Of a DNA stretch of 58,018 bases, positions 2,859-24,646 are shown one piece after another. A model generated the notes under the pieces. The model was not told the DNA's origin. It did not search any database and saw only the letters and a program-made list of their open reading frames with translations. The stretch comes from a virus (lineage: Duplodnaviria; Caudoviricetes): positions 1 through 58,018 of the IMG/VR virus record IMGVR_UViG_3300032335_001124. One strand, given 5' to 3'. Within the stretch, counting starts at the first letter, position 1, and each line of letters begins with the position of its first letter. The translations under genes and the position numbers were made by a program.

Positions 2859-3623
2859 TTAAACCCAGGCCGTGCCGTTCCAGACTTTTAAAACACTTGT
2901 ACCGCTGTCGTACCAAAGATTACCTTGCTGACTAGGTGCTGGAGCAGCAACACCATAAGCGGCATTTCTAACGGAACCAGTTTCGTACCAACCAGAACTT
3001 GTGGCGTCGTAGATAAAGAGATTGCCTAGTAGCTGGTTGAACCACAAGGTGCCGTCCCTTGGAGGCGAATTTAAACCAGCGCCGGATGGAGGTAGTTCTG
3101 ACTTGACCGCAATTGCTTCAGAGTTGGTTTGGTACCAACCGTCGGCAGATACGCCAGTTCCACTTGCATAAATAAATAGACGCCCTTCGTTGGTATCGAA
3201 CCAAAGCGCACCTGGATTATACCCTGAACCAGGTGACCCAGAAATGACTGTGGGACTGGTAACTAAGCCAGAAACGCTGACACGACTACCGCTGTAAACG
3301 ACGTTTGTACTACCTTCGCCAACAACGCCGATATTAATAAGAGAGGATCCACCACTAGTAGTTATATAAACACCGGATCCGCCCACGATGCCGGAAACTA
3401 CAGCCGAAGCTTGAGTTGAAATACCTGAAATTGTGAGATTTAAATCTTCTAGGACTTGAACGACCCCGTCAAAGTTAGCGGCATAACCGCTGGGGTCCAT
3501 CATAAAACTTACAGTTCCCACACCGCTGACCGTGTAAATAATATCTGTTACAACGTCAATTATACCCCGAAAATTCGCTTCATGAAGGGCCTTTCTGGAA
3601 GGGTAGTGGATACACGCCGCCAT
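2859..3623 (-). CDS. putative tail/fibre structural protein
   Basis: Three G.LW[FY]D.....L.[IV][YW] repeats; rich in Ser-Gly. Confidence 0.6.
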   Translation of the reverse strand: MAACIHYPSRKALHEANFRGIIDVVTDIIYTVSGVGTVSFMMDPSGYAANFDGVVQVLEDLNLTISGISTQASAVVSGIVGGSGVYITTSGGSSLINIGVVGEGSTNVVYSGSRVSVSGLVTSPTVISGSPGSGYNPGALWFDTNEGRLFIYASGTGVSADGWYQTNSEAIAVKSELPPSGAGLNSPPRDGTLWFNQLLGNLFIYDATSSGWYETGSVRNAAYGVAAPAPSQQGNLWYDSGTSVLKVWNGTAWV

Positions 3624-3679
3624 CGTATATTTACCCGAGAATACTCTAGTTTAGACACTACCTTCGTATTCTAAAGATT

Positions 3680-3844
3680 TTACCTCTTCTTGAGACTATA
3701 TAAGTCAACCGGATGTTTAAAACCTTCTTCAGCAATCATCCAAGCTGGAATATTTAAAATTTCAGCCTGACGTTTGCACTCTTCCCAAAAAGATAAATCA
3801 GGAGCTGCTTGCTTTTCTAAAACAGCAGAAGGCACTACGACCAT
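3680..3844 (-). CDS. hypothetical protein (54 aa)
   Basis: Hand translation: MVVVPSAVLEKQAAPDLSFWEECKRQAEILNIPAWMIAEEGF... Confidence 0.45.
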   Translation of the reverse strand: MVVVPSAVLEKQAAPDLSFWEECKRQAEILNIPAWMIAEEGFKHPVDLYSLKKR

Positions 3845-18171: not shown

Positions 18172-20590
18172 TCAAACGTTGAACGAGTAGGCAACAGTAA
18201 CGAAGTCAGCGTTTAGAAGCTCGAAACCTGCGTACAGGCTCCAGATCATCATGATAAAACGGCTGAAATCGTCGTTGTTGTTAAGCAGCACTTGAGCATT
18301 GTTACCGCCGATACCGACGCCAACACTCTGAGGGCCGAAGAACATACCGATAGCACTGTCGTACGTAGTCGAAGTACCACCGATAGTTGCTGTGGCGGTT
18401 TGGGAAGGCATGTTGGTGGATTCGAAGAATCGCACACCTTCAAACACAAAACCGGTAGGCATGATGGGTTCGCCAGCCACGAAGGAGGCTTGCCCAAAAC
18501 CCTGACCCATGTAGATAGCAGCGTTAGGCTGCATAGCAGACATGAGTGGGTTGATCTGACCGTTGCCGGGGTAGCGAGCCACTTCGCGGAAATCGCTGTT
18601 CTGACGCAGGTGCATCAGGAACGTGGGGTCGCAAACGCAACGATAGAAACCGTCTTGGTAGGTGGGGGTGTTCCGCTTACGCAGAGACTTCACCACGCGG
18701 AGAAGGTCATCCTTAACGTCAAACTTGGCTTGCTCTGAGTTGGTGTAGGTTAAAGAACCAACAGCCAAATTACCGGGGTAGTAGTAACCACCTTGGGTAT
18801 CAGAAGATTGACCTTTAGATACAGCTTTCAGGAGTTCATTAATGAACACCCGATCGCGCCAACGACGATAGTCGTCGAGCAGGGTCAAAGAACCAATTGA
18901 TTGGTGGAAGGCAGTGAGATTACCGGTATCCAACAGCAAACGCTGAGCGGTAATTAGTGTCTCACGTGCAATCTTAAATGTACTTGCTTGTGTTGGATCG
19001 CTAGGGTCGGCAGGACCGGTGTCACATTGTTACCCTAAAGGCTCTTTATCCTTTAGTTCTTACGGTTTACCATCCCGTAAGGTCAGACTATATCATCACC
19101 CATGATTAAATCGTTTGGGTGCGGGGCACTCGTGTCACCTTATCGGCTTCAAAGAGATACTTCTCTCGGTCAGCCTCGGTGTTAGTCGTTGAACCTTCCA
19201 ATCATTTCTGATTGGCTTGGCTGCTGATTACCAGACCAGTATAAGTACAAAATGTACTGGTTGGAGGGCTTCCAGCAATTCACCCCGTTATTCAATGCGG
19301 ATTACGCCGCAAGGGAGCTACACGTTAACTCGCGAAGAGTAACCAACACTTTATCCTTCACGATATTGCGGCTGCTAGCAGTACCGATGGTCTGCTCTGC
19401 AGTACGCTCACGTGACTCTTTGCTTCCGGGATTGCCCCAGAACCTGTAACGATCAAGCTGAACGGTTTGACCGGGTTGTTTTGCTGTTTTACACTCAATC
19501 TAGAGTGCTGCGAGGCTCTTTATCCTCACACACTACCTTAAGGGCGGTAGTGACAAGACTATATCATCACCCACAGCATTATCTGTTTGGGTGCTCCGCG
19601 CTCGTGTCACCTTATCGGCTTCAAAGAGATACTTCTCTCGGTCAGCCTCGCTCCACTTGGCTTTTCCTCGATTAGAAGAAGAGTCATAATGAAGGTCAAA
19701 TTTGTAGGCCATTGCTTCACAAGCAAAAGGTTTAAGCGAATCGACAAATCGACGTGCTTCAGTTCCCCCTGCTCTTAAATTCCACTTATCAGGTGATTTA
19801 AGGCTCATCGGAATCCTGGGGATAAACGAAGCTCCTGTAAGACACTCAATCCAATCGCCGATCATCACGGCAATGTCGTGTGGAACATAAAGCGCTAGCT
19901 CTACAGTGCGTTCTCTAATCATTAACTCTCCTTGTTTATTTTGACCTCGCTTGCGAATATGCAAGTTTCCGTCATCCATATAAAGAAGAGCCAAACCTTC
20001 TAATCCAATTTCCCTTAAGAAGATGGGACTAAAACGTTTTCGACCGTCTGGATATAGTTCCTTCCACAAAGGTAAAAGAACCTCTGAAGATGGAGACCAC
20101 CATTGACAAGCTGCATGGGTTTTACCAGAGAGAATTATCTCTCTTGGCTTAACCTCATTACTGCTTTTAAAGATTTTATTTAGGCGATCAGCTTTCCATT
20201 GAAGATAATCTTTCTGTTTAGCAGAATGAGTCATCTGTAACAGAGCTGTGGTACTGCTTACTTTACGTAAGCATCCATCACCTAAACAGGCACCTTTAAG
20301 GTACGAAGAGTCGCTTAGAGAAAGCATTGACAGTGTTAGTCGTTGGACCTTCCAACCATTTCTGATTGGCTTGGCTGCTGATTGGCCTTCCCTACTCGAG
20401 AGAGGGGTCCGGCTTTCCAGCAATTCACGGAGTTATTCGACCAGGATTTCGCCTGGAAGTTCCCTAGCTCACAATAAGCTCAGAAGTCATGAACAACCAC
20501 GGGTTCTGCAGCCATCTCTACAACGTACGCGGGATGCGGACGGTAGAGCTCTGCACCGAGCAGCTTCGGAAAATCATTGTCGACGAACAA
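18172..20590 (-). CDS. major capsid protein (371 aa after splicing); exons 20590-20482, 19483-19328 and 19022-18172
   Basis: GGAGG then TTG at 20590. Joining gives MFVDNDFPKLLGAELYRP...HDFS|KQPGQTVQLDRYRFW...TLREY|TGPADP...GVRFFES...DFSRF..MIW: 1116 nt in frame. N4-gp56-like motifs. Confidence 0.85.
19023..19327 (-). mobile_element. group I intron 2 in MCP (305 nt, no ORF)
   Basis: Exon ends in U; P1 gagU|ua/uaGcuc; P4 uugcug/cagcag; P3 cggggug/ugccccg; P7 gacua/uaguc; terminal G at 19023. Confidence 0.9.
19484..20481 (-). mobile_element. group I intron 1 in MCP (998 nt) carrying a LAGLIDADG gene
   Basis: Exon ends in U with an in-frame TGA across the junction; P3 cuccgug/cgcggag; P7 gacua/uaguc; terminal G at 19484; splicing restores the Ser codon T|CA. 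Confidence 0.9.
19533..20327 (-). CDS. intron-encoded LAGLIDADG homing endonuclease (two motifs)
   Basis: YLKGACLGDG and LALLYMDDG motifs plus HS.KQ..YL.WK. Likely ATG at 20327. The 3' end reads through the ribozyme core. Confidence 0.85.
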   Translation of the reverse strand: MLSLSDSSYLKGACLGDGCLRKVSSTTALLQMTHSAKQKDYLQWKADRLNKIFKSSNEVKPREIILSGKTHAACQWWSPSSEVLLPLWKELYPDGRKRFSPIFLREIGLEGLALLYMDDGNLHIRKRGQNKQGELMIRERTVELALYVPHDIAVMIGDWIECLTGASFIPRIPMSLKSPDKWNLRAGGTEARRFVDSLKPFACEAMAYKFDLHYDSSSNRGKAKWSEADREKYLFEADKVTRARSTQTDNAVGDDIVLSLPPLR

Positions 20591-20702
20591 AGCGCCAACC
20601 TCCGAAAAACTACTCCTTTATTTTAAGCTGTTTAAAGACAGATGGTATATTGTTTGTCGCATTAATAGCGTTATTTACTTTTTTTGTTTACCTTAAATAA
20701 AT

Positions 20703-21964: not shown

Positions 21965-22882
21965 TTAAGCGGCGTCTAAGAACAAGAGCTTCTGACGGAA
22001 AGCGTCAGGGCTCATTTGACTCAGATAACGCCAAGCTTGCTCGGGATTCTGATTCATGGTTTGGGAGAAACCATTCCACTGAGTGTCAGGATCGTTGCGA
22101 ACTGCGCCTGCAGAAGCAGGAACAGCAGGCATGTCATAACGAGGTTGATAAGCTGCTTGCTGAGCAGGATAACCAGAGTTATCTGCATCTACTGGATACA
22201 CTTCGGTGAAGAACCGGTTGGTGTAATCAGCTAGTTGATCAGGATCAGTAAGAATATGCTCCATTGCAGCGCCACGTGTGGCGATGGAGTTCATATTTTC
22301 GTTCTGAGCAATCAGAGCGTCTTCGAGAGTAACAGCATACTGATTAAGGATGCCGGGAGCCTCGATGCCGAAGTGATTAACGACTTGAGCGCTTGCGGGG
22401 CTTAGCTGGGGGGCTTGGCTGCGCCCCGTAGAAGCCTGAGAGGAAGCTTGGGTCGTAGAGACGTTGTTGGAGTAAGTCGGGGCTGCCGTAGGCGCTTGGT
22501 ACGCCCATGGTTGGGCCTGTAAAGGCTGACTGTACTGAGGAATAGCCTGTTGCGTCGTCGCGTATTGTGGAGACGGTGCTGTTTGGCTGGGGAGTGGTGA
22601 CATCCTGGACACCACCCGCTCCAGGCTGCCCATTGCTGCTTCCCACGGATTGTTCGGGGAGTAAGCGGACGGAGACTGGTTGTACTGGTTGCTGGTAGAA
22701 AGGACCGAACCCTGTGTTGCCTGCGACGGCATTTGGGCTGTAGGTACCGAAGCTACCGCCGGGGTACTGGTTTGCGCCACCCACTGCGGGTAAGCGGTTG
22801 AGCCCTGGTCCATTGCTGGCGCCGCCGAGGGGGCTGCTGCCGCTACCGGGCTCGGGATCGAAGCTTGGATCTGCTGGCTCAT
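21965..22882 (-). CDS. putative capsid scaffolding/assembly protein
   Basis: Lies between portal and MCP; P/Q/A/S-rich disordered N-terminus and helical C-terminus. Confidence 0.6.
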   Translation of the reverse strand: MSQQIQASIPSPVAAAAPSAAPAMDQGSTAYPQWVAQTSTPAVASVPTAQMPSQATQGSVLSTSNQYNQSPSAYSPNNPWEAAMGSLERVVSRMSPLPSQTAPSPQYATTQQAIPQYSQPLQAQPWAYQAPTAAPTYSNNVSTTQASSQASTGRSQAPQLSPASAQVVNHFGIEAPGILNQYAVTLEDALIAQNENMNSIATRGAAMEHILTDPDQLADYTNRFFTEVYPVDADNSGYPAQQAAYQPRYDMPAVPASAGAVRNDPDTQWNGFSQTMNQNPEQAWRYLSQMSPDAFRQKLLFLDAA

Positions 22883-24611
22883 AGCTACCCGAGTAGGTTA
22901 GTTCTTGCGCGAGGTGGTCAAACGTCCTGTATAACAGGGGCGTTATGTTTAATCTAGGGTCAGCCCCTAAGGGTTGATCCGGGGCGAGAGGATGTGGCGT
23001 TTGCAACATCTGTGATAATAATACTAAAAATTGTTGCATTGCGCTTTGAGTTTGTTGGATCATCCTGAAAGGAAATCCTTTTAACATTTCTTCTCGCTCA
23101 GTATCCGTCTTATCCGGGAATAAATAACGTAAAGCTTCGACACTGTCAACTCCTAATTCCTGCAAATTTCGGACAACAATAGACTTTTGGTTTATGTCGT
23201 AGGCCGTGTCCTCATAGACATCGCCTTGGAAGCGGTACGCAACAGTACGATCTCCATCTGGAGGTAAACCAAAAACACCACGTGGGACTGCAGAAGTTGA
23301 AAGCGCTTCTTGCATCATCTGTTTTAGTTTTTGGTCAAACTTTTGCTGTTCTACTTCAAAGCGAATTGTCTCTTCAGATGAATCATCGGCAACAGGTTTA
23401 GGCTTTTTGAGCTTAACAACAGCGGCAAAACTATCTTTAAAAGTTTCTTCTTGGTGGTAGAGAATCATCTCCAACAACTTACAGAACCCGTACACCAAGA
23501 AACTTTTATTTTTTCTTAGTGCTGTGGCTTGAGCGCGACCCATCAAACCCTTAATTTCTGTGGCAGTGGCACCAGCAGAAACTGAAATTTCATCAACACC
23601 TCCTAATGCTGTCCGAATTTCTTCACGCAGCATTAAAGCCCATCGGTTCATGTCCCCGTTAACAGGGTCTGGTGTCATGTAACCAACACGATCCGAAGGC
23701 TCGACGTTGGCAATAATTCGAGGGACTCTCAGCCCGCCCATCAAACCACTGGAACCAAAAGGCTCGCTTACTCGTGTCGAGGGGGTATCGCGACCAGCAA
23801 ATCCACTTTGACTACTAATTGTTGGACGGAAAGTGCGATCAGAGTCGCTAGCTTCGACAAGATCACTACGAGGACGCGAACTAATAAGTGTCGGATTACC
23901 AAAAAATTCAATATTTTTAGCAATGTTCGTATTTAAGGTGTCATGAAGAACAATTTGTTCCATAAAAGGTTCAAATTCGCCTTCACCAGAAGTACCACTA
24001 CTGTCTGGTTTGTTAAGAACCTCAACAGCAGGTATAAATCCAAGTGTATTTTCTCGCGTATTTCTTGAAGTGACGAGTCCTCCTGGCTCCAGGTCAAAAC
24101 TCAACTCTGTATTAGACTCAAATTCAGATATACGTTCTTCGGTAATAGAAATTCGGACATAGCGTTCGTTTAAACCTGCTGTGTCAGAAGGTAAACCAAT
24201 GTTAGAACTACGAATTTTATATTTGTAGATTATTACAACTTCATCTAAGTTTCCGTTTACATCGTGGTAAACACGATACTGATCTTTAGAAAAAAAGTAT
24301 ATTTGATACTTTAATTTGGGGTCAGGTCGAAAATAAAATAAACCACATCCGTCGATTAAAAAATTACGAATAATCGAAGGAAAACGAATATCAATTTTAT
24401 TTAAAGTAATCAAGCTATCTAAAAATTTAGATCTAGCTTTATAAGTGTCTTGTTCACAATAAAAAGTCAAGCCCTTCTTAATCATCAACAGCGTCATTTG
24501 CTGGATGTGACTAAGAACGACTAAAGTAGACGCTTGCTTGGATCTATCTTGAGTCCGCGAAGCCTCAAGAATTTCTTGAAAGCGTTGACGGACTCCGATC
24601 TGGTCGGCCAT
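22377..24611 (-). CDS. putative portal protein with a long low-complexity C-terminal tail
   Basis: Size and position between terminase and scaffold; LGFIPAVEV.N and SA.ATATEIK resemble portal motifs. Confidence 0.7.
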   Translation of the reverse strand: MADQIGVRQRFQEILEASRTQDRSKQASTLVVLSHIQQMTLLMIKKGLTFYCEQDTYKARSKFLDSLITLNKIDIRFPSIIRNFLIDGCGLFYFRPDPKLKYQIYFFSKDQYRVYHDVNGNLDEVVIIYKYKIRSSNIGLPSDTAGLNERYVRISITEERISEFESNTELSFDLEPGGLVTSRNTRENTLGFIPAVEVLNKPDSSGTSGEGEFEPFMEQIVLHDTLNTNIAKNIEFFGNPTLISSRPRSDLVEASDSDRTFRPTISSQSGFAGRDTPSTRVSEPFGSSGLMGGLRVPRIIANVEPSDRVGYMTPDPVNGDMNRWALMLREEIRTALGGVDEISVSAGATATEIKGLMGRAQATALRKNKSFLVYGFCKLLEMILYHQEETFKDSFAAVVKLKKPKPVADDSSEETIRFEVEQQKFDQKLKQMMQEALSTSAVPRGVFGLPPDGDRTVAYRFQGDVYEDTAYDINQKSIVVRNLQELGVDSVEALRYLFPDKTDTEREEMLKGFPFRMIQQTQSAMQQFLVLLSQMLQTPHPLAPDQPLGADPRLNITPLLYRTFDHLAQELTYSGSYEPADPSFDPEPGSGSSPLGGASNGPGLNRLPAVGGANQYPGGSFGTYSPNAVAGNTGFGPFYQQPVQPVSVRLLPEQSVGSSNGQPGAGGVQDVTTPQPNSTVSTIRDDATGYSSVQSAFTGPTMGVPSAYGSPDLLQQRLYDPSFLSGFYGAQPSPPAKPRKRSSR

Positions 24612-24646
24612 TCTGTTAACTACACAACGAAATTAAAAATTTAAAA

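Follow-up and report, generated by a model that had tools for sequence, protein, structure and literature searches.

The window analysed here (the whole stretch of 58,018 nucleotides (nt), positions 1 to 58,018 of IMG/VR record IMGVR_UViG_3300032335_001124; Duplodnaviria, Caudoviricetes; estimated completeness of the record 72%) belongs to an S-EIVl-like freshwater cyanophage, and two group I introns, hereafter A and B, interrupt its predicted major head protein gene. We consider it likely that both are genuine group I introns that separated long ago as paralogues, that A is a complete mobile unit with its own homing-endonuclease gene (HEG), and that B, which lacks an open reading frame (ORF), is a chimera whose centre was acquired through ectopic conversion from an ORF-less copy of A. 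Positions 19023-20481 comprise exactly the two introns and the 156-nt exon between them. The features of the locus, given in the order of transcription, are as follows:

20590..18172, minus strand: major head protein gene (371 codons, three exons, two group I introns)
20482..20590, minus strand: exon 1 (109 nt), TTG start codon at 20588-20590, 3' end ...GAC TTC T
19484..20481, minus strand: intron A (998 nt; 'intron 1' of an earlier sequence-only reading of the window), group I, with a LAGLIDADG HEG
20333..20481, minus strand: 5' ribozyme part of intron A, from P1 to the P7 5' strand; shared block 1 (51 nt, 20333-20383) forms its 3' end
19651..20332, minus strand: 682-nt endonuclease cassette of intron A, without a stop codon of its own, between ...ACAC and CGAGG..., inside the P7.1 5' strand
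19533..20327, minus strand: LAGLIDADG homing-endonuclease ORF (HEG_A), 264 amino acids plus TAG
19484..19650, minus strand: 3' ribozyme part of intron A (P7.1/P7.2, P3', P8, P7', P9), beginning with shared block 2 (50 nt, 19601-19650)
19328..19483, minus strand: exon 2 (156 nt), colinear with intron-less alleles
19023..19327, minus strand: intron B (305 nt; 'intron 2' of that reading), group I, ORF-less, likely chimera
19129..19229, minus strand: centre of intron B (101 nt; P6, J6/7, P7 5' strand, P7.1, P7.2), of A-type sequence
18172..19022, minus strand: exon 3, stop codon at 18172-18174

Relatives were obtained by a protein search of IMG/VR with exon 3, which returned at least 594 confirmed relatives, all of them metagenome assemblies; the survey described below covers the best 80 (94-100% identical; loci numbered with L). 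Excision of 19484-20481 and 19023-19327 yields a single frame that aligns colinearly with many intron-less alleles in IMG/VR and with an uninterrupted ORF of the Synechococcus phage isolate S-EIVl, and the spliced protein follows that of S-EIVl residue for residue at the junctions (...VVVHDF-S-KQPGQ... and ...TLRE-Y-TGPADP...). Read without splicing, exon 1 ends in a TGA that spans the 5' splice site of intron A. The sequence-only reading had placed the junctions at TTCT|CAAA (A) and GAGT|ACAC (B); the survey of intron-minus alleles and S-EIVl match these positions to the base, and the boundaries have no room to slide. At the splice sites, intron A reads TTCU|G...CAG|C and intron B GAGU|U...GUG|A, each with a U at the end of the 5' exon and a G at the end of the intron.

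The covariance model of group I introns (Rfam RF00028, gathering score 50 bits) gives intron B 73.4 bits at 19065-19337 (minus strand). Intron A with its ORF reaches 38.1 bits (E value 1e-7) at 19531-20486 (minus strand), below the gathering score because the ORF interrupts the ribozyme alignment; ORF-less alleles of A score 71.9 bits (L013) and 68.7 bits (L009). In the folds, P1 of each intron pairs with its own exon and places a U-G pair at the splice site. RNAalifold, applied to five ORF-less introns of the family (three of which are near-identical), yields a consensus fold of 77 pairs; compensatory changes affect 24 of these, and the helices recovered include P3, P4/P5, P6, P7.1 and P8. 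P3 reads CUCCGUG/CGCGGAG in one intron and CGGGGUG/UGCCCCG in the other, and three compensatory versions of it occur across the family. Thus two group I introns at different sites of the capsid gene, each with a P1 fitted to its own exon and with a compensatory P3, as the sequence-only reading had proposed, agree with model scores, folds, alignment and junctions alike. Relative to the Rfam model, 52 nt are inserted between P7 and P3'; they fold as nested helices, with compensatory changes in an outer P7.1 stem and an inner P7.2 hairpin. Such extra helices between P7 and P3' define subgroup IA, to which both introns look like they belong. Short DNA matches (74-91%) also link 19027-19135 to Clostridium, Streptococcus and Alicyclobacillus phages and 19552-19596 to phiKZ-like phages, mostly in unannotated stretches; these P7'/P9 matches probably reflect the conserved core of group I introns that these unrelated phages carry themselves. 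As for the word 'twin', by which the pair had been introduced, it does not apply in the sense of a twintron: this arrangement is excluded, as an exon colinear with intron-less alleles separates A from B.

We assign the interrupted gene to the phage major head protein from a family match and from its position in the head module. Exon 3 matches phrog_1357 ('major head protein') at 5.7e-20, and the S-EIVl ORF does so at 1.4e-19; a portal-like gene lies upstream (22377-24632, minus strand). The nearest ESM Atlas clusters carry Phage_capsid_3 or Phage_capsid_4 on 13-44% of their members. A Pfam search gave no match for exon 3 or the neighbouring genes, and a PDB sequence search with the head protein found no relevant entry. 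A GGAGG stands 8 nt upstream of the start codon, which is TTG in the window and TTG, ATG or GTG in relatives.

Intron A carries the endonuclease gene and B has none, as had been predicted. HEG_A scores 47.6 bits against Pfam PF03161 (LAGLIDADG_2; cut-off 25) and 6e-15 against phrog_11023, and its two motifs, LKGACLGDGCL and LALLYMDDGNL, are both kept in site-A homologues that are 60-90% identical. The acidic residue of each LAGLIDADG motif has a functional role, and two motifs are characteristic of the monomeric two-domain form. No solved relative was found, as a PDB sequence search with HEG_A returned no relevant entry. The gene begins 5 nt into the 682-nt cassette, which contains no stop; its last 39 codons cross shared block 2, P3', P8 and P7', and its TAG lies in P9, so that the reading of the endonuclease C-terminus through the shared block and the P3/P8/P7 core was correct. 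HEG_A is unbroken in 43 of the 45 locus rows, both exceptions being one contig fetched twice (L038 = L088). In L038, positions 2994-3748 hold the only site-A endonuclease gene that is split into two frames; this suggests a frameshift and makes it a candidate for a decaying copy, as the homing cycle predicts.

The near-precise boundary for gain or loss of the endonuclease that the sequence-only reading had deduced turned out to be exact. ORF-less A introns of L013 and L112 (316 nt) correspond to positions 1-149 plus 832-998 of the window's intron A, that is, to intron A without exactly 19651-20332, and their flanks are 97-99% identical. A single 151-nt record from an independent run (X17) joins 19650 to 20333 and spans the segment from the A-specific P5 to the A-specific P3'. 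In the consensus fold, the insertion point of the cassette falls within the P7.1 5' strand, between P7 and P3'.

The chimeric nature of intron B is suggested by the repeats that it shares with A. Segments 19113-19178 and 19585-19650 are 94% identical over 66 nt, their last 50 nt (19129-19178 and 19601-19650) being the same, and 19179-19229 and 20333-20383 are 96% identical over 51 nt, with 2 mismatches. A repeat comparison thus reproduces the two blocks as they had been described: they adjoin in B and lie 682 nt apart in A (19651-20332). Shared block 1 corresponds to P6, J6/7 and the P7 5' strand. The calculated chance expectation of an exact 50-nt repeat in 58 kb is about 1e-21. Weaker repeats extend over 39 nt (79%), 18 nt (100%) and 14 nt (100%), and over the whole length A and B are 70% identical (293 aligned positions). 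Identity is however very unevenly distributed: 99 of 101 positions agree in the centre, but of the 192 positions aligned in the outer parts only 106 do (Fisher p = 2.7e-17). The comparison with the intron B of L011, which carries an endonuclease of its own (HEG_B), shows the reverse distribution. Identities of the window's intron B are as follows:

5' outer part: 99% to L011 B, 54% to window A
P6-P7: 89% to L011 B, 96% to window A
P7.1-P7.2: 52% to L011 B, 100% to window A
3' outer part: 100% to L011 B, 60% to window A

In the centre, the window's B agrees with the ORF-less A of L013 at 100% of positions; against the window's own A it has 2 mismatches, both in P6. The same 305-nt intron B is found, 99.7-100% identical, in L009, L010 and L013, which come from different metagenomes; L112 shows the same two matches at 472-nt spacing and the same gap length at site B (here intron B is matched by spacing, unaligned). 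In addition, within the 3' part of intron B, 71 nt (19028-19098, P9 region) match the site-144 intron of L013 and L043 at 95.8%, the remainder being about 76% identical; we read this segment as a second mosaic tract between neighbouring introns.

In the scenario that we favour, the site-A intron of the window's clade would have lost its endonuclease cassette, and the centre of such an ORF-less A (P6 to P7.2) would then have overwritten the centre of the site-B intron 156 nt away, the same conversion deleting the native endonuclease gene of B. Intron B would have kept the P1-P5 and P3'-P9 typical of site B, a form that elsewhere comes with its own endonuclease. Conversion from an ORF-less A accounts for shared blocks that adjoin in B but flank the 682-nt cassette in A. 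As to function, intron A presumably spreads by cutting intron-less TTCT|CAAA alleles at co-infection, and both introns would have to splice for the capsid to be produced.

Introns A and B belong to a larger family within the same gene. In the survey, insertions occur at seven sites, all within the first 265 nt of the coding sequence, and at 7 of 7 sites the insertion is preceded by a U and ends with a G. Named after the coding nucleotide that they follow, the sites and their matches to RF00028 are:

site 8: above the gathering score
site 54: 29.2 bits, 931-nt insert
site 64: above the gathering score
site 92: 43.7 bits, partial match (middle of the model)
site 109 (A): above the gathering score (ORF-less alleles)
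site 144: 38-42 bits
site 265 (B): above the gathering score

Seventy-two of the 80 loci span the whole 5' region, the other eight being cut by contig ends. The configurations of the 72 loci are:

no intron: 44 loci
A with endonuclease only: 15 loci
site 92: 4 loci
site 64: 3 loci
ORF-less A and ORF-less B: 2 loci
ORF-less A, site 144 and ORF-less B: 1 locus
sites 8 and 54: 2 loci
site 144 only: 1 locus

Among the end-cut loci, L004 has an endonuclease-bearing A but lacks B, L008 and L012 carry a B that keeps its own endonuclease, and L011 combines an ORF-less A with an endonuclease-bearing B, which makes it the mirror image of the window. L024 ends within the site-54 intron; L049 is free of inserts from position 60 onward; L018 and L034 are unclassifiable. 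A scan of IMG/VR with a 44-nt P6-P7 motif gave 35 stretches, and all loci checked (34 plus L009) lie in the same head protein gene.

Intact two-motif LAGLIDADG genes are present at four sites (54, A, 144 and B), and site 64 has a truncated remnant. Identity to HEG_A is 33% for HEG_B and 31% for the site-144 endonuclease, the site-54 endonuclease being weakly related; the endonucleases of A, B and site 144 and the site-64 remnant are about 30% identical to one another. The endonuclease genes of A and B both begin 11-12 nt past the P7 5' strand and run in the same frame through the P3'-P8 core. These similarities point to one ancestral intron-endonuclease unit that would have spread to neighbouring sites a long time ago. 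Because HEG_B is so distant from HEG_A, the outer parts of the introns are 54-60% identical and seven sites are occupied, the split between A and B appears old and only the 101-nt centre recent. The sequence-only reading had offered two origins for the pair; the mosaic pattern upholds inter-intron gene conversion, whereas a recent duplication with retargeting fits poorly with these three observations.

Locations of further inserts are 1182-1529 and 1575-2505 in L022, about 3264-3797 in L019, about 1137-2257 in L051, and 771-1690 in L013. The 931-nt insert at site 54 is probably a group I intron, although its match is weak. At site 92, the insert measures about 1.1 kb and contains no ORF longer than 88 amino acids; an endonuclease remnant is absent from it except for one 17-residue match over the shared P6 block. 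In L085, L114 and L116, about 1.33 kb of extra DNA separates the exon pieces between sites 92 and A, while intron A with its endonuclease measures about 1.0 kb; these loci may carry two introns (site 92 and site A) just 17 nt apart. Five of the 80 contigs (L004, L008, L011, L012 and L024) end within these introns, and the family appears to break metagenome assemblies of the S-EIVl-like lineage. Gene calls are affected as well: in the GenBank record of S-EIVl (KJ410740, 60784-62010; L001 3961-5187), the capsid region is annotated as two 'hypothetical protein' coding sequences, one of them on the opposite strand, although L001 3961-5118 (minus strand) holds an uninterrupted stop-to-stop frame of 385 codons with a match to the major head protein; the record thus misannotates this ORF.

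A recent duplication or transposition would mean that A, or an ORF-less copy of it, entered site B (for example by reverse splicing) and then diverged in P1 and the peripheral stems. This would agree with the homology of A and B throughout their length and with a P1 matched in each case to its own exon, and the family did colonise new sites in the past. We nevertheless find it quite unlikely, as B in its outer parts shares 99-100% of positions with a site-B intron whose endonuclease is only distantly related to HEG_A, a recent copy is hardly expected to have diverged so far outside the centre while retaining 99 of 101 positions inside it, and the P3 difference directly adjoins the identical block. 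About as unlikely is that the centre was kept by selection without any exchange, be it as an RNA domain, as an endonuclease target or expression signal, or as the binding site of a shared maturase. The block from P6 to the P7 5' strand is indeed 85-100% identical across site-A and site-B introns, 81-88% identical to sites 64 and 92 and about 75% identical to site 144 over a longer stretch, and it is more conserved than most of the ribozyme. The downstream block, on the other hand, varies: its identity drops to 83% in L023_A, to 82% in both L042_A and L044_A, and to 52% in L011_B. In these three A introns, the P7.2 hairpin shows compensatory differences; the centre is thus not frozen by function. 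The maturase version, in which HEG_A would serve both introns through the shared centre, is unlikely for another reason, since L009, L010 and L112 carry both introns in ORF-less form, without HEG_A; a scan limited to their head protein gene found no intron-encoded LAGLIDADG endonuclease, and a maturase encoded elsewhere in these contigs is possible.

The HEG might also be a mobile unit that targets intron DNA, at ...GACTAACAC|CGAGGCTG..., the shared blocks then being co-conversion tracts left by the invasion of ORF-less introns. The cassette does sit at one exact position between near-identical flanks, the near-identity of A and B is centred on the insertion point, and Loizos, Tillier and Belfort reportedly described in 1994 an intron endonuclease that recognises intron sequence. 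Yet the window's B holds a perfect copy of such a target beside an intact HEG_A and is uninvaded, and every endonuclease-bearing B has HEG_B, never HEG_A. Moreover, endonucleases of different sites are about 30% identical, as expected if each targets its own exon. A last point against this scenario is that the exon junctions do not resemble the insertion site of the cassette (in register, a match as good as the observed one arises in 1804 and 1997 of 2000 shuffles). We judge it very unlikely. Finally, the blocks or the ORF-less forms could be assembly artefacts, produced by chimeric joins between co-occurring strains. The length of the blocks (50-51 nt) is close to common k-mer sizes, several IMG/VR contigs end within introns, and assembled contigs of a DNA run (X1, described below) break at the repeat edges. 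However, the centre of B holds two P6 variants that the window's A does not have, so that a switch within a single genome would not produce it; the ORF-less B intron recurs, 99.7-100% identical, in three other contigs from different metagenomes and the ORF-less A intron in several (L112 having the same spacing), and the single 151-nt record spans an ORF-less A. The X1 pieces also permit only the order of the window, and coverage of the 50-nt block is roughly double that of the adjacent pieces. An artefact is therefore highly improbable.

Logan contigs of one DNA run and three RNA-library runs were aligned to 18700-20700. Contigs of the DNA run (X1), possibly the sample of origin, fit only the linear order of the window, the depth of the 50-nt block being 31.5x as compared with 12.5x and 17.3x alongside, and one of them (19149-19630, 482 nt) links intron B, exon 2 and intron A. 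The mean word depth of this 482-nt contig is 12.5, that of the flanking contigs 17.3 and 18.6; a minority variant without 19149-19630 is possible in X1.

Several points weigh against the conversion of B by an ORF-less A, or against parts of this scenario. The direction could be the reverse, with an ORF-less B as the older form and a B of the L011 type having gained HEG_B and a foreign centre; this alternative also needs an exchange, because the centre is 100% identical to that of an ORF-less A. The conversion is undated, and the genome of the window need not be where it took place: since the window's A differs from the donor-type centre at 2 P6 positions, this genome is probably a later recombinant. 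The combination seen in the window (A with HEG, ORF-less B) was found in no other IMG/VR contig, those with two matches all showing 472-nt or 1387-nt spacing, and as many contigs end within introns, some combinations may be mixtures of strains. As regards splicing, the contigs of the three RNA-library runs, which are uninformative on whether splicing occurs, contain no exon-exon joint, and the sole long contig from an RNA library (X15, 19434-20537, with 38 differences) runs unspliced over intron A, although it could derive from DNA carry-over. The argument for splicing is consequently built on the ribozyme scores, on boundaries fixed to the base and on the fact that the gene is essential. For the head protein, AlphaFold2 gave a predicted local distance difference test score (pLDDT) of 29.9 from a shallow alignment of 10 sequences that are 95-99% identical, too low to judge an HK97-like fold.

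The alleles without introns bear on mobility. Among intron-less genomes with an exon 3b 98-100% identical to that of the window, exon 2 is only about 90% identical, while in the intron-bearing L009 and L010 it reaches 96%; this would be expected if the introns move together with flanking exon sequence. The codon of Ser37 (20480-20484 in the window), which intron A splits, is TCN in 30 of 30 rows with intron A; in 38 of the 56 alleles without intron A, it is AGY instead. An AGY codon removes the U needed at position -1 and alters three central bases of the presumed target, so that this recoding may represent target-site escape from the endonuclease.

Comparable elements are known from other phages. 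Like the introns of the window, those of the T-even genes td, nrdB and nrdD/sunY are group I introns of lytic phages that exist with or without a HEG and are polymorphic among relatives, and the homing cycle applies to them. The T-even host genes however belong to nucleotide metabolism, whereas here the host gene is that of the major head protein; seven sites in a 265-nt stretch and an endonuclease gene that lies in P7.1 and runs into the 3' core also set the window apart. T4 introns are of subgroup IA, with P7.1/P7.2, and their endonucleases are of the GIY-YIG or HNH type, in contrast to LAGLIDADG here. Bryk and Belfort are said to have found in 1990 that domains shuffle between T4 introns. 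According to a 1999 report attributed to Landthaler and Shub, three group I introns reside within one gene of Staphylococcus phage Twort, which thus resembles the window in having several such introns per phage gene; we know of no population-level gain or loss and no chimeric introns in Twort. Group I introns of cyanophage psbA (S-PM2, S-CBWM1, S-SRM01) likewise contain or neighbour homing endonucleases, but they interrupt a photosynthesis gene of marine or T4-like cyanomyoviruses, not a head gene of the unrelated S-EIVl lineage.

The sequence-only reading had regarded capsid genes as less usual hosts of phage introns; capsid-gene introns are less unusual than that (PMC3706429, PMC7886860). 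The capsid gene of mycobacteriophage LittleE contains a probable group I intron with a LAGLIDADG-related ORF, for which splicing has been shown, and a 156-bp segment of this intron is 98% identical to tail-gene introns of BAKA and Optimus; the same text mentions a group I intron in the capsid gene of Tuc2009 (PMC3706429). As in the window, one core thus occurs at different sites, with and without an endonuclease. In LittleE, however, the endonuclease is encoded on the other strand and related introns interrupt different genes, while those of the window share one gene, 156 nt apart, and include a co-oriented endonuclease gene that overlaps the core as well as a chimera traced at the population level. 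In crAss-like phages of the Delta and Zeta groups, the major capsid protein (MCP) gene is split by group I introns with endonuclease domains, one MCP ORF being in five fragments (PMC7886860). These capsid genes in several pieces are also known from metagenome assemblies; they belong to other phage and host lineages, and the portion of the paper available to us does not describe intron kinship, site-specific paralogous endonucleases or exchange between introns. A parallel from outside phage introns is provided by neighbouring inteins in the MCM gene of Haloarchaea, which interfere with each other's homing (PMC10643990): there too, homing elements are packed into a short stretch of an essential gene and one can overwrite its neighbour. 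An intron endonuclease of a jumbo phage is reported as a weapon between co-infecting phages (PMC11620839). Capsid-gene introns, multiple introns per gene and segments shared between introns are thus already published. Our literature search, which did not reach the S-EIV1 genome paper, found no paper on introns in the S-EIV1 lineage.

What the locus adds is a set of co-existing alleles in which steps of the homing cycle can be seen side by side, from invasion through endonuclease loss and inter-intron exchange to target-site escape, in a natural and well-sampled system within an abundant freshwater cyanophage lineage. In practical terms, the introns appear to disrupt metagenome assembly as well as gene calling. 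With seven sites and several paralogous LAGLIDADG endonucleases inside 265 nt of a single essential late gene, the locus lends itself to tests of how endonucleases are retargeted to new sites, how close neighbours interfere with each other's homing, and whether capsid-gene endonucleases serve as weapons between co-infecting phages. A broader view, which we put forward tentatively and consider possible rather than probable, is that the first 265 nt of the gene are a battleground of seven recombining intron-endonuclease pairs, in which conversion from an ORF-less neighbour would regularly strip an intron of its endonuclease while keeping the ribozyme, and from which intron-less alleles would escape by recoding their target (TCN to AGY). 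If this is true, conversion from an ORF-less neighbour would be a step of the homing cycle that is not usually considered.

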